Below, piece after piece: positions 2,508 through 34,682 of a DNA stretch of 62,062 nucleotides; position 1 is the stretch's first letter; every line of letters starts with the position of its first letter. A program made the position numbers and the translations under genes. The DNA is from Phycisphaerae bacterium (GTDB lineage: Bacteria > Planctomycetota > Phycisphaerae > SM23-33): the NCBI GenBank assembly GCA_016929245.1, contig JAFGJE010000251.1, forward strand, positions 1 to 62,062. Direction: 5' to 3'. The notes below the pieces were generated by a model. The model made no database searches. It worked only from the letters and a program-made list of their open reading frames with translations, and was not told the origin of the DNA.

Positions 2508-3650
2508 ATGACGTTACGAAACACGATCATTTCGGCGATGGTAATCGCGGCGCTGGCTTGTTGGCCGGCGGTGCACTGGCCCGCGCCGTCATCGGCGACG
2601 GCGGCGACGCCTTCGCGCGTCCTGCCGAAGATGGTCACCCGCGACACTGCCACGCGCGTCGACAAGGGGCTGCGCTACCTCGAACGCACCCAGCGACAGG
2701 ACGGCAGTTGGCTCAACAGCGGCGGATGGGGAGTCTATCCCGTCGTCATGACGTCGCTGGCGGGACTGGCGTTTCTCGCCAACGGTTCGACGCCGGAATC
2801 CGGGCCGTACCGACGCAGCGTTTCGCGGGCGCTGAACTACGTGCTGAACATCGCGGAGGCGGGTCGGCAGCGGAACAAAAAGGAAATCCTCATCGCCGGG
2901 GAGGGGTCGGAATCCCGCAGCATGTACGGCCATGGGTTCGGGATGCTGTTCCTCGCGGAGTGTTACGGGATGGAGGGCGACAAATCCACCGACCGCGCGC
3001 AGCGCATCCGGGACGTGCTGGAAGGGGCGGTGAACTTAACCGCCCGGGCGCAGTCCGACCTGGGACCCGCGCAGAAGCACGCCGGCGGATGGATTTACAC
3101 CCCCAACGGCCGAAGCGACGAAGGTTCGGTGACCGTCACGCAACTCCAGGCCCTCCGCGCCTGCCGCAACGTCGGGATCAAGGTGCCCCGCAGCACGATC
3201 GAACGGGCCGTGCTGTACCTGAAATTCTGCCAGCAGTCCGACGGGGGGATCTGCTATTCCGCGCAAAGTCGCGGCAACAGCCTGCCGGCGATCTCCGCGG
3301 CGGCGGTGGCGTGTTTTTATTCCGCGGGCATTTACGACACCCGCACCGGCGGCGCCGGCGTCGAGGCGAAGATGGTCGAACGACTCATCGAATACTGCAA
3401 GAAAAACGTCCGCGTCGAAGGCGGCGCGGGACATTACTTTTATACACAACTGTACTATTCCCAGGGAATGTACCAGCGCGGCGGGAAGGACTGGGTGGAC
3501 TATTACCCCCGCATCCGCGACCGCCTCGCGGGCATGCAGGCGCCGGACGGAAATTGGAACGGCGACGGTATCGGCCCGATCTACGGAACCGCCATCGCCT
3601 GCATGATCCTGCAACTACCCTACGGCTACCTGCCGGTGATGCAAAGATAG
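2508..3650 (+). CDS. Prenyltransferase/squalene oxidase repeat-containing secreted protein
   Basis: Signal peptide; QW-like repeats ([32 protein letters not shown]); located next to a MoxR ATPase. Confidence 0.85.
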
Positions 3651-3673
3651 GCAGGGCGGGGCTACCGCCCCGC
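3651..3673 (+). repeat. GTAG-like REP hairpin (GCAG tag)
   Basis: GCAGG followed by GCGGGGC-TACC-GCCCCGC, directly after the stop codon. Confidence 0.45.
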
Positions 3674-3694
3674 GAAACAATTGGAGATACAACC

Positions 3695-4756
<1,062 letters not shown>

Positions 4757-4758
4757 AA

Positions 4759-4792
4759 GAATTGCGGATTGCGGGTTGTGGATTGCGGAATG
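4759..4792 (+). repeat. Heptamer tandem array, family C (GATTGCG)n, copy C1
   Basis: GAATTGCGGATTGCGGGTTGTGGATTGCGGAATG just after the moxR stop. Confidence 0.75.
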
Positions 4793-4808
4793 AAGAAAAA
4801 AGATACAT

Positions 4809-4858
4809 TGTCATCCTGAGCGAAGCGAGTCTTCGATCGCAGTCGAAGGACCCCACGC
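4809..4858 (+). repeat. REP-like palindrome, family A, copy A1 (upstream arm of GIY-YIG gene)
   Basis: TGTCATCCTGAGCGAAGCGAGTCTTCGATCGCAGTCGAAGGACCCCACGC; matches 9 other copies in the window. Confidence 0.92.
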
Positions 4859-4895
4859 CCAGGAAAATGACAAACCATACAAACGGAAACAAACC

Positions 4896-5189
4896 ATGAG
4901 ACAGCACAATTACTACGTCTACATCATAACCAACCGGACGCATCGTGTGCTGTACATCGGTATGACCAACAACCTGGAACGCCGTTTGTCCGAGCATCAA
5001 AGCGGAGAGTTCCCCGGTTTTACGAGGAAATACAACGTGAACAAGCTCGTGTATTACGAGCATTACTCGGAAGTTGAATGTGCGATTCGACGAGAGAAGC
5101 AACTGAAAGGCTGGCGACGAGAAAAGAAGAATCAATTAATCGCGAGCATGAATCCCAAGTGGGATGATCTCGCACATGCCTGGGCGTGA
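4896..5189 (+). CDS. Small stand-alone GIY-YIG nuclease (YhbQ/UPF0213-like)
   Basis: YYVYIITN...LYIGMTNNLERRLSEH...GFTRKY...LVYYE...AIRREKQLKGW, with canonical Y/Y/R/H/E positions, 97 aa. Confidence 0.95.
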   Translation: MRQHNYYVYIITNRTHRVLYIGMTNNLERRLSEHQSGEFPGFTRKYNVNKLVYYEHYSEVECAIRREKQLKGWRREKKNQLIASMNPKWDDLAHAWA

Positions 5190-5232
5190 GATCCTTCGAT
5201 TGCGGCCCTTCAGGCCTTCGCTCAGGATGACA
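5184..5232 (-). repeat. Family A copy A2 (downstream arm, overlapping GIY-YIG stop)
   Basis: Reverse complement TGTCATCCTGAGCGAAGGCCTGAAGGGCCGCAATCGAAGGATCTCACGC; inverted relative to A1. Confidence 0.9.
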
Positions 5233-5242
5233 AACCCCAGCC

Positions 5243-5419
5243 TGTCATCCTGAGCGGAGCGAAGCGGAGTCGAAGGAACCCACGCATAGAATGAGTGGCA
5301 TAACCAACACATTGGGAACGTGGAAGAAAAAGCGGAATGAAAATATGAAGTTATTTTCTAAATATCTGCGCGTGGGATCCTTCGACTTCGCTCGAAGACT
5401 CGCTTCGCTTAGGATGACA
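5243..5419. repeat. Family A inverted doublet A3(+)/A4(-) (REPIN-like)
   Basis: A3 5243-5285 is TGTCATCCTGAGCGGAGCGAAGCGGAGTCGAAGGAACCCACGC. A4 5370-5419 is reversed, with one substitution in the core (CCTAAGC). The spacer is AT-rich. Confidence 0.9.
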
Positions 5420-5431
5420 GTATAGAGACTA

Positions 5432-6409
5432 ATGGCAAAAACCAACGGTAACAACTCGAACGAACTGCTGCAGTATCTTGATCCGAAGGTGCTGGCGAAG
5501 ATTACGCGGCTGGATTTGCGCGCGCGGCATGTGGTGGAGGGGTTTGTCAGCGGTTTGCATCGCAGTCCGTTTCACGGCTTCAGCGTGGAGTTCGCCTCGC
5601 ATCGCGAATACGTCTGGGGCGACGATATCCGGCATATCGACTGGAAAGTGCAGGCCAAGACCGACCGGTTCTACATTAAGCAGTACGAGGAAGAAACGAA
5701 CCTAAAGGCGATGTTCCTGCTCGACGCGTCCGAGTCCATGCGGTATGGCGGAACGAATGAAACAACGAGCCCCGGGCGTAAGCCCGGGGACCATCGCTTT
5801 TCGAAATACGAATACGCCGCGACGGCGGCGGCTTCTTTGGCGTTTTTGTTGCAACAGCAGCAGGACGCCGTGGGCCTGGGCATTTTCGACGAGGAACTCG
5901 TCACCTACTCCCCGCCGTCGACGTCCCCCCAGCAGCTTCGCGCGATGATCCACGCGATGAGCGCCGCGGAACTGAAGAATCCAACGTCGCTGGAAGCCGT
6001 CGCACACACGATGGCGGAGAAGATTTCCCGCCGCGGGCTGGTGTGCCTCGTTTCTGACCTGTTCGCCGCGACGGACGGCGTGATCCGCGCGCTGGAGCAT
6101 TTTCGACATCGAGGCCACGAGGTGCTCGTGCTGCATATCCTCGATAAGGACGAGTTGGACTTCCCCTTCGTGGGCAACACGCAGTTCCTCGGCCTGGAGA
6201 ACATGGGCAGGGTAAACGTGCAGCCACGCGCGTTGCGTGAGGCGTATCTGAAGGAAGTCAACGCGTTTTGTCACGAAGTGCAGCGCAAGTGCGTCGCCAG
6301 CCGCATCGACTATAAGCGAATTTCAACAGCCGACAGTCTGGACGCGGCGCTATGCGCGTTCCTGGCGGCCCGCGCCGCGGCGGTACGGAAAACGAGCGCG
6401 AAACGATGA
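5432..6409 (+). CDS. DUF58 protein (MoxR-associated, vWA-like)
   Basis: GLHRSPFHGFSVEFASHREYVWGDDIRHIDWK, LLDASESM, LVSDLF. Confidence 0.93.
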   Translation: MAKTNGNNSNELLQYLDPKVLAKITRLDLRARHVVEGFVSGLHRSPFHGFSVEFASHREYVWGDDIRHIDWKVQAKTDRFYIKQYEEETNLKAMFLLDASESMRYGGTNETTSPGRKPGDHRFSKYEYAATAAASLAFLLQQQQDAVGLGIFDEELVTYSPPSTSPQQLRAMIHAMSAAELKNPTSLEAVAHTMAEKISRRGLVCLVSDLFAATDGVIRALEHFRHRGHEVLVLHILDKDELDFPFVGNTQFLGLENMGRVNVQPRALREAYLKEVNAFCHEVQRKCVASRIDYKRISTADSLDAALCAFLAARAAAVRKTSAKR

Positions 6410-6876
6410 AGAAGTTTGACCACAGAGACACAGAGGGCACAGAGGAAAGAGTTTTTCAATCAAACTCTTACGTATATAAACGTAATAGTGTTTTTTCGAC
6501 GCAGCAATATCCCTGTAAGGATATTACGGAGAAAATTATCGGCTGTGCAATTGCGGTTCATCGTGAATTGGCTGCAGGATTTATTGAATCTATTTATGAA
6601 AATGCACTTGTTTATGAACTCACAAAACAATCGCTAACCGTTGAAAAACAAAAATCGTTAGAGGTTTTTTACGATGGTGTCTTTGTCGGAGAACATCGGG
6701 CGGATTTAATTGTCGAAGGAAAGGTAGTTGTTGAATTAAAAGCCATTCGTGAATTGACTCCACAACATACATCACAATTGATGAGCACAATGAAGGCAGC
6801 AAAATTGAAAGTAGGTTTGTTAATCAATTTCGCGGAAGCACGATTGATCGACGGAGTACAACGAGTCGTTCTATAA
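6406..6876 (+). CDS. GxxExxY protein (PD-(D/E)XK nuclease fold)
   Basis: GFIESIY, RADLIVEGKVVVELKA, GLLINF. The ATGA start overlaps the DUF58 stop. AT-rich (about 37% GC in a sampled line) relative to the flanks. Confidence 0.92.
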   Translation: MKKFDHRDTEGTEERVFQSNSYVYKRNSVFSTQQYPCKDITEKIIGCAIAVHRELAAGFIESIYENALVYELTKQSLTVEKQKSLEVFYDGVFVGEHRADLIVEGKVVVELKAIRELTPQHTSQLMSTMKAAKLKVGLLINFAEARLIDGVQRVVL

Positions 6877-6912
6877 CAACAACTCTGTGACCTCTGTGCC
6901 TCTGTGGTCAAA
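6415..6912. mobile_element. Candidate element: GxxExxY gene bounded by 30-bp terminal inverted repeats (family B)
   Basis: Left arm 6415-6444 TTTGACCACAGAGACACAGAGGGCACAGAG; right arm 6883-6912 reverse complement TTTGACCACAGAGGCACAGAGGTCACAGAG (28/30 identical). GC drops inside, and the unit interrupts the MoxR operon. Mobility is inferred. Confidence 0.6.
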
Positions 6913-19272: not shown

Positions 19273-19359
19273 GATATGAATCCGGCAAACCTTGGCGCAG
19301 CCGATAAGTCCCGTGAAAGTTGCTTCGGGAGTTTTTCAACGTGTAAATACTTTTTATAG

Positions 19360-19402
19360 GCGTGGGGTCCTTCGACTCCGCTTCGCTCCGCTCAGGATGA
19401 CA
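19360..19402 (-). repeat. Family A copy A5 (single)
   Basis: Reverse complement is identical over 43/43 nt to A10 at 34586. Confidence 0.92.
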
Positions 19403-20509: not shown

Positions 20510-20603
20510 TGTCATCCTGAGCGGAGCGCAGCGAAGTCGAAAAACCTCACGGGTAACTAGGCGTAAGGTCCTTCGACTTCGCTGCGCTCCGCTCAGGATG
20601 ACA
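20510..20603. repeat. Family A inverted doublet A6(+)/A7(-) with 18-nt spacer
   Basis: TGTCATCCTGAGCGGAGCGCAGCGAAGTCGAAAAACCT-CACGGGTAACTAGGCGTA-AGGTCCTTCGACTTCGCTGCGCTCCGCTCAGGATGACA. Confidence 0.92.
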
Positions 20604-25657: not shown

Positions 25658-25758
25658 TGTCATCCTGAGCGGAGCGAAGCGGAGCCGAAAGACCTTACGC
25701 TTCCCTGCCCGTCAGGTCCTTCGACTTCGCTCGAAGACTCGCCGCGCTCAGGATGACA
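25658..25758. repeat. Family A inverted doublet A8(+)/A9(-) with 18-nt spacer
   Basis: TGTCATCCTGAGCGGAGCGAAGCGGAGCCGAAAGACCT-TACGCTTCCCTGCCCGTC-AGGTCCTTCGACTTCGCTCGAAGACTCGCCGCGCTCAGGATGACA. Confidence 0.92.
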
Positions 25759-34585: not shown

Positions 34586-34628
34586 TGTCATCCTGAGCGG
34601 AGCGAAGCGGAGTCGAAGGACCCCACGC
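34586..34628 (+). repeat. Family A copy A10 (single)
   Basis: TGTCATCCTGAGCGGAGCGAAGCGGAGTCGAAGGACCCCACGC. Confidence 0.92.
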
Positions 34629-34682
34629 ACTCGAGACTTGGCGGGACAGAGCCCCGCCAAGCTCAAACAAAAATTTAACGTC

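Follow-up and report, generated by a model that had tools for sequence, protein, structure and literature searches.

The closest described relatives of the locus reported here, which lies in a 62,062-nt window (the whole stretch of DNA analyzed) of contig JAFGJE010000251.1 from a Phycisphaerae bacterium of sediment origin and joins a small nuclease gene, ssn, to a family of tagged hairpin units, family A, are the Ssn systems of Chenal et al. (2025, Nat Commun 16:2388, PMC11893778). Ssn proteins are single-domain GIY-YIG nucleases, SsnA of Neisseria meningitidis being 94 amino acids long, and the motif of the Neisseria system, NTS, is CGTCATTCCCGCGMAVGCGGGAATCYRG. Purified SsnA and three homologues bind their motif only as single-stranded DNA (ssDNA) and cut it a few nucleotides upstream, with no action on double-stranded DNA (dsDNA), RNA or the reverse strand; each of the substitutions Y6A, Y17A and E64A abolishes cutting by SsnA, as does, in N. 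meningitidis, a stem of altered sequence with the structure kept. The motif class, SRM, flanks 71% of ssnA homologues, 42% on both sides, and the system reduces transformation by NTS-bearing DNA. The NTS-ssnA-NTS layout was likened to insertion sequences (IS) and to the pairing of repetitive extragenic palindromic (REP) elements with RAYT, with mobilization put forward as a discussion hypothesis only (PMC11893778). The literature collection that we searched contained no later paper on Ssn. CGTC-tagged REPs had been catalogued before by Di Nocera, De Gregorio and Rocco (2013, BMC Genomics 14:522, PMC3733652), who concluded that they have no dedicated transposase; the initial annotation of our window, which held that no dedicated enzyme had been assigned to such repeats, was correct for 2013 and has been outdated since 2025.

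In the window, ssn and four family A units lie in the spacer between moxR and a DUF58 gene. Comparison with the published system suggests that the locus is very probably an Ssn/SRM module, both in membership and in mode of action, the latter being motif-directed cleavage of ssDNA by Ssn at the family A units. The hairpin is a variant outside the published SRM search definition. The enzyme partner of CGTC/TGTC-tagged palindromic repeats is already known, the question having been answered in 2025, and the locus is not a new kind of system. Its parts are as follows.

3695-4756, forward strand: moxR, AAA+ ATPase gene (Pfam AAA_3, E = 2.4e-63; start MTEEHDD and stop TAA checked), upstream neighbour in the operon, bordering the insertion on the left.
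4809-4862, forward strand: hairpin unit A1, SRM-type, TGTCAT tag outward, ending 33 nt 5' of ssn.
4896-5189, forward strand: ssn, single-domain GIY-YIG nuclease gene of 97 amino acids (Pfam PF01541, E = 1.2e-18).
5180-5232, reverse strand: hairpin unit A2, SRM-type, tag outward, overlapping the TGA stop codon of ssn by 10 nt.
5243-5290, forward strand: hairpin unit A3, SRM-type, left arm of a gene-less doublet.
5366-5419, reverse strand: hairpin unit A4, SRM-type, right arm of the gene-less doublet, 12 nt 5' of the DUF58 start.
5432-6409, forward strand: DUF58/vWA gene (Pfam DUF58, E = 1e-46), downstream neighbour in the operon, bordering the insertion on the right.

The moxR-DUF58 spacer is 675 nt long and holds the four units, of ~45 nt each, together with the 97-residue GIY-YIG gene, which is placed between units 1 and 2 with their TGTCAT ends directed away from it. 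A1 and A4 form a 59-nt inverted repeat that is 88% complementary, and the inner tail of A2 codes for the C-terminal residues of Ssn (W-A-stop). The layout given in the initial annotation, namely A1(+), the GIY-YIG gene, A2(-) over its stop codon and the A3(+)/A4(-) pair between moxR and DUF58, is thus found in every part, and its description as a REPtron-like cassette that lacks a RAYT and has the GIY-YIG protein as cognate enzyme agrees with the Ssn/SRM system of Chenal et al. (PMC11893778). Both flanking units also fall inside the 500 bp that the published description allows for inverted motifs on the two sides of the gene.

In the 97-residue protein, Pfam GIY-YIG spans residues 5-78 and is the sole domain; the matches in Pfam and NCBIfam are generic GIY-YIG matches only, and no database record of the exact protein was found. 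Chenal et al. give cd10448 (GIY-YIG_unchar_3) as the top CDD assignment of the family. The only solved structures matched are PDB 1ZG2 (BH0048) and 1YWL (EF2693), both UPF0213, with profile E values of 1.5e-7 and 6e-5. For comparison with the published family, the SsnA orthologue of N. gonorrhoeae was taken from the 2.17-Mb chromosome record NZ_CP119140.1 (PLSDB; our L164), which is mislabelled as a plasmid. This orthologue is a 94-residue open reading frame (ORF) with Y6, Y17 and E64, situated amid seven canonical NTS units within 1.4 kb. The window protein aligns with it without gaps over residues 8-92 (85 amino acids, 88% of the query) at 46% identity, with a pairwise E value of 2e-24 and a tblastn E value of 8e-15 against a 7.3-Gb database. 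Residues Y9, Y20 and E67 align with the Y6, Y17 and E64 mutated by Chenal et al. (PMC11893778), and in 24 homologues Y20 and E67 are invariant while Y9 is at least 90% conserved. As an aside on data quality, the plasmid collection contains two N. gonorrhoeae entries of 2.17 Mb that are in fact complete chromosomes; wrongly labelled and almost unannotated, they are a trap for searches of this kind.

The pairing of gene and unit extends well beyond this contig. A homologue search returned 7987 significant hits among 8000 scored candidates, and the family is very large. Linkage was measured on a set with one genome per species, comprising 80 loci from ~20 phyla at 49-65% identity, 78 of them usable, with a unit finder that requires GTCAT, three free bases, (G/A)A and then, within 3-75 nt, the complement of T plus those three bases. 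A (+) unit lies within 250 nt upstream of the gene in 60 of the 78 loci and a (-) unit within 250 nt downstream in 60 also; 48 loci have units on both sides and 72 on at least one, the reverse of the mostly unflanked homologues that the initial annotation had named as counting against a cognate pairing. Outside these flanks the same loci have 0.27 units per kb; shuffled sequence yields 0.054 per kb. Units of this class, which we term GA-type, border most members of a very large Ssn clade that includes Chloroflexota, Acidobacteriota, Bacillota, Verrucomicrobiota, candidate phyla and others. Many of the homologues (loci L002-L081, proteins P0010-P0112) are annotated too long in the databases, their N- or C-terminal extensions being translated flanking units; ...LRCAQDDK, ...SLGMTGE, ...DFSLRSK and VISTSASEEKS are examples of such translated hairpins.

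Within the window, an 18-mer core of the unit has 10 matches where shuffled sequences lead one to expect 0.11. Four of the ten units are those of the moxR-DUF58 spacer, and the other six occur in other intergenic regions as singles or as doublets with tags outward. There is no second GIY-YIG gene in the 62-kb window.

19358-19402, reverse strand: gene-less single unit of the same family, with no GIY-YIG match nearby.
20510-20603: gene-less inverted doublet, tags outward, arms almost abutting; a single strand folds to a hairpin of -50 kcal/mol (z = -15.8 against shuffles).
25658-25758: gene-less inverted doublet, tags outward.
34586-34630, forward strand: gene-less single unit, almost identical to the copy at 19358-19402.

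Chance co-location of gene and units was considered and is ruled out by the ten units found against 0.11 expected and by the ~20-fold enrichment of units beside homologues. In the sediment metagenome, units at least 90% alike reach a summed contig depth of 3000-5000 (window positions 4753-4869 and 5221-5454) compared with ~10-15 for unique sequence of the organism, and the units must therefore be common to many loci or organisms in the sediment sample.

The structure of the unit was derived with a minimal pattern in which no pairing is imposed (GTCAT N3 RA N7 RA N3 AYC), chosen to avoid circularity, which gave 129 minimal units from 43 loci. Watson-Crick pairing is found at the three free positions of the outer stem in 123, 125 and 127 of these units (95-98%), with covariation (CCT/AGG, TCT/AGA, TTC/GAA, CCC/GGG, TCC/GGA), and at the two positions of the inner stem in 120 and 114 (88-93%), as G-C, C-G or A-T; few G.T pairs occur. 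In the loop, which is G-N-A, 94 of the 129 units have G opposite A. Read in order, the unit consists of the TGTC tag, a 5-bp stem (A-T, T-A and three pyrimidine-purine pairs), GA/GA mismatches, either a C-GNA-G mini-hairpin or a longer inserted hairpin, and ATC; the minimal form, TTGTCATCCTGAGCGAAGCGAAGGATCTC, is 29 nt long, and the units of the window have the longer inserted hairpin in place of the mini-hairpin. The T that precedes GTCAT in 84% of 425 units is not imposed by the finder, and neither are the CGA before the closing stem and the T-C after it (76% and 87%). Among the units tested for folding energy only doublets exceed their shuffles (z = -15.8); the hairpin of the single unit is supported by covariation and not by energy.

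Because wobble pairs are almost absent and both orientations are used, these data point to a DNA structure rather than an RNA structure. The alternative that the units act at the RNA level, as terminators or stabilizers of mRNA, and that the nuclease gene is an unrelated passenger could draw on the location of the units in intergenic spacers of co-oriented genes and on the very stable hairpins that doublet RNAs would form. It leaves unexplained why the units stand in both orientations relative to transcription, why Watson-Crick pairs make up their stems almost entirely, G.U-type pairs being very scarce, and why gene and unit are linked across ~20 phyla; a search of the units against Rfam gave no match, and SsnA does not bind RNA (PMC11893778). 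We regard this alternative as scarcely credible.

Several observations weigh against assignment of the locus to the Ssn/SRM system. The published SRM pattern, HGTCWYN(0-2)YYVSBRHN(0-5)WNVSBRGN(0-2)RNCYNB, has zero matches in the 62-kb window, in a search that did recover a canonical NTS control, and of 82 loci only one has a match near the gene. The tag, a stem that opens with AT and a 3' ATC are common to that pattern and the units of the window, but the units carry GA/GA where the pattern wants paired S/B positions; because the pattern finds no unit in the window, identity of the unit with the SRM motif rests on common architecture and not on the published definition. The published homology criterion (blastp to N. 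meningitidis SsnA with E < 1e-10 and at least 75% coverage, size at most 150 amino acids) was applied by proxy, with the N. gonorrhoeae orthologue standing in for the N. meningitidis protein, and the window protein falls inside these limits. Single units fold no better than shuffles under nearest-neighbour energies (z from -1.1 to +1.0). The Ssn proteins characterized in vitro are four homologues, none of them paired with a GA-type hairpin. Stem triplets differ between the two flanking units in 22 of the 48 doubly flanked loci, which, set against the requirement for the stem sequence in N. meningitidis, indicates that recognition rules may differ in this clade. Natural competence is not known for this lineage, and the role in Neisseria may not transfer to it. 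The single locus that the SRM pattern does match, L061 from Ignavibacteriota, encodes a 55% identical protein and is flanked by canonical dRS3/NTS-type ATTCCCGCG...CGGGAAT units, and therefore one protein family serves both hairpin classes.

The history of the site was reconstructed from related genomes. The ssn gene occupies the same moxR-DUF58 junction in a Phycisphaerae metagenome-assembled genome (L001; MoxR 92% identical to that of the window) and in the metagenome contigs L082 (85%) and L083 (79%). In L084 (MoxR 77%) and L085 (69%) the moxR stop codon runs straight into the next gene, recognizably DUF58 in L085, with no units. Among relatives farther removed, for those that allow both genes to be placed, the spacer nearly always lies between an overlap of ~90 nt and a gap of ~90 nt, again with no units. 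The empty junction that the initial annotation proposed to look for in relatives therefore exists, in L084, L085 and beyond, and the ssn block is an old, vertically inherited insertion, since the same junction is occupied in L001, L082 and L083 and tight in the further relatives. Over the four orthologues the ratio of nonsynonymous to synonymous substitution (dN/dS) of ssn is 0.03-0.13 with dS saturated, which denotes strong purifying selection. Identity between these genomes is 66-94% for the flanking units, compared with 53-60% for third codon positions and 8-35% for the leader between unit and start codon; the units are either constrained or homogenized. The variant inner hairpin of A2 (GGCC..GGCC type) is common to the corresponding units in L082, L083 and L001, and the outer flank of A4, GTATAGAGA, is also present on the DUF58-adjacent unit of L001.

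The core of unit, ssn and unit is common to the four orthologous loci, while the number and side of the extra units vary: the window has a downstream doublet, L001 an upstream doublet, and L082 and L083 one extra unit each. In L001 ssn lies between units 3 and 4, whose arms are 98% complementary, and not between units 1 and 2 as in the window. With such differing extra units around a shared core, units evidently turn over around a stable gene.

This variation bears on the question of whether Ssn is a mobilizer, with the unit-ssn-unit cassette as autonomous element, the gene-less doublets and singles as its non-autonomous derivatives, and the whole as the GIY-YIG counterpart of RAYT and REPIN. 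Such a role would add to the Ssn reading and not replace it. By this route, the ends left by nicks 5' of the outward units on ssDNA would be copied or deleted by the replication or repair machinery of the host. Besides the differing number and side of extra units, the IS-like layout with outward tags, the gene-less doublets of equal geometry and the insertion of the entire block in a junction that is tight in relatives fit such an activity, as does the base composition of ssn, which is AT-richer than its host (48.6% GC against ~60% for the window and neighbouring genes). The phylum label changes 36 times on the protein tree (minimum 19; 51-55 with shuffled labels), suggesting some horizontal transfer, in a tree of a short protein whose phylum signal is partly vertical and partly mixed. 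The hypothesis is also raised in PMC11893778 itself.

Other evidence speaks against it. No target-site duplication was found at the borders of the cassette, which has stayed at one site while synonymous sites became saturated, and two sets of identical Ssn proteins, P0009 and P0116 (21 and 19 contigs), are each found in a single genomic context. GIY-YIG enzymes are hydrolytic and form no covalent intermediate, as is established for the superfamily; they therefore cannot carry out strand transfer alone. The spacers of the gene-less doublets were considered as deletion remnants of ssn and rejected as such: their local alignments with the ssn ORF are no better than those of shuffles, 27-90 of 300 of which score as high. 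Excision and insertion variants were sought in the sediment metagenome contigs, from the only run with the window, in which contigs break at the units; the joints seen at units are other copies with other spacers, and none is attributable to excision at the moxR-DUF58 locus. The metatranscriptome showed nothing over ssn.

There is thus no sign of recent movement, while slow, nuclease-promoted unit dynamics are compatible with the data. The claim of the initial annotation that this GIY-YIG protein is the cognate enzyme that spreads or maintains family A stands as to the cognate pairing; spreading is not borne out, given the stable vertical inheritance at this site, the lack of observed movement and a published activity that consists of hydrolytic, site-specific cleavage of ssDNA. 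We consider mobilization by Ssn unlikely. A broader form of the idea, tentative and to our minds equally doubtful, is that cassette and gene-less doublets together replicate as a repeat system whose driver is not a transposase but an ssDNA nickase, hydrolytic and guided by hairpins. Host replication or repair would turn cuts 5' of the outward units into the copying, loss and reshuffling of units, and the GA-type hairpin, invisible to the published SRM search, would then be the chief motif of this sort in a large Ssn clade of ~20 phyla.

The position of ssn in the loop of a doublet, and of a different doublet in L001 than in the window, could also be explained by a free-standing homing-endonuclease gene that cuts empty doublets and is copied into the loop by recombination, with the arms as homology. 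Characterized members of the family leave dsDNA uncut (PMC11893778), and the window protein is without a DNA-binding domain. The gene is moreover present in a single copy in 62 kb despite three empty doublets, has a stable location and is under strong purifying selection. Homing is accordingly very unlikely in our view.

Returning to the Ssn/SRM module, by analogy with the four characterized homologues Ssn would bind the unit only when it is single-stranded, as may be the case during replication, in ssDNA taken up by import or conjugation, or in an ssDNA phage. Recognition would be confined to the tag strand and would involve TGTC at the 5' end, the stem and the C that immediately follows it; hydrolysis of that strand would take place a few nucleotides before the tag and would rely on Mg2+ and on Y9, Y20 and E67. 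Since the flanking units turn their tags outward, one cut is predicted on each strand, immediately beyond either end of the cassette. On this reading the module entered the once-tight moxR-DUF58 junction in an ancestor of this Phycisphaerae clade and has since been passed on by vertical descent under selection, in a manner close to that of RAYTs. We infer that the window protein cuts at family A, at the positions predicted above, and that its role may be to restrict or shape the recombination of SRM-bearing ssDNA.

New in these results are the placement of an Ssn module in Planctomycetota; a GA-type class of hairpins, whose stems clearly covary and which escapes the published motif search, so that the published association figures and genome counts probably understate the system; and a four-genome orthologous series with an empty-site outgroup, which documents long vertical retention under selection with neighbouring units turning over and is material suited to testing whether Ssn drives repeat dynamics. 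Each new pair of Ssn and hairpin is also a candidate site-specific ssDNA-cutting reagent.

Other repeats and a second nuclease gene were observed nearby. A third short repeat, of GGATTGC/GGATTTC-like heptamers (TTGCGGATTGCGGGTTGTGGATTGCGGAATG), occupies window positions 4761-4795, directly 3' of the moxR stop codon and just outside A1; relatives of it occur at 7330-7440 in L001 and at 520-570 in L082, and an inverted pair lies in the DUF58-batA spacer of L001. In the window, that next operon spacer (6406-6912) carries a small nuclease gene at ~6445-6876 of the PD-(D/E)XK_3/GxxExxY type (Pfam E = 1.9e-39, 37% GC), bracketed by 30-nt inverted repeats of its own (TTTGACCACAGAG..., arms 6415-6444 and 6883-6912). 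The corresponding spacer of L001 is without this gene and has only a copy resembling the right arm, by the batA start (~7455-7477 in L001). Many gene-less pairs of the 30-nt arms occur in the metagenome contigs, as joints from 6441-6448 to 6877-6892 with 8-34 other letters between, at depths up to 246 compared with ~11 for the organism. A weak Rfam match to Acido-Lenti-1 at 5765-5789 (reverse strand), inside the DUF58 coding region, scores 23.5 bits against a gathering score of 37 (E = 0.016) and is most likely due to chance.

Set beside known systems, the locus differs from GIY-YIG homing endonucleases of the I-TevI type in that the window protein is a catalytic domain alone, in 97 residues, and members of its family spare dsDNA (PMC11893778). 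Of the marks of an IS or a miniature inverted-repeat transposable element (MITE), inverted terminal units are present, while neither a recognized transposase nor a direct target duplication at its borders was found. UPF0213/YhbQ-type proteins (1ZG2, 1YWL) are likewise stand-alone URI/GIY-YIG domains of ~100 residues, but they are a distant, separate subfamily without a known repeat partner. The CGTC-tagged REP superfamily (PMC3733652) shares the short palindromic repeats with an xGTC tag at one end, the spread over many phyla and the lack of a link to a transposase; here the partner is a GIY-YIG nuclease and the tag starts mostly with T. With REP/REPIN and RAYT (TnpA-REP, the REPtron), the locus has in common tagged hairpins that occur as intergenic singles and inverted doublets, one vertically inherited enzyme gene within its own repeats, and recognition of ssDNA hairpins, the last as predicted for the window protein. 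It departs from the REPtron in that the only enzyme between the repeats is a hydrolytic GIY-YIG protein and not an HUH/Y1 transposase of the IS200/IS605 type, in the tag, which is TGTC rather than GTAG at the hairpin foot, and in that mobilization is only hypothesized for Ssn. Where the published NTS/SRM hairpin of Ssn has a perfect stem of 8 bp closed by a tetraloop, the unit here has a 5-bp stem, GA/GA and C-GNA-G or a long insert; its tag begins mostly with T (TGTC; 84% T before GTCAT) where theirs is CGTC, and the host belongs to Phycisphaerae. What the two share is a single-domain GIY-YIG protein of ~95 residues with identical spacing of the catalytic residues and, for the gonococcal orthologue, 46% identity, encoded between inverted xGTCAT-stem-ATC units that also occur, here within the 62-kb window, as singles and doublets away from the gene.

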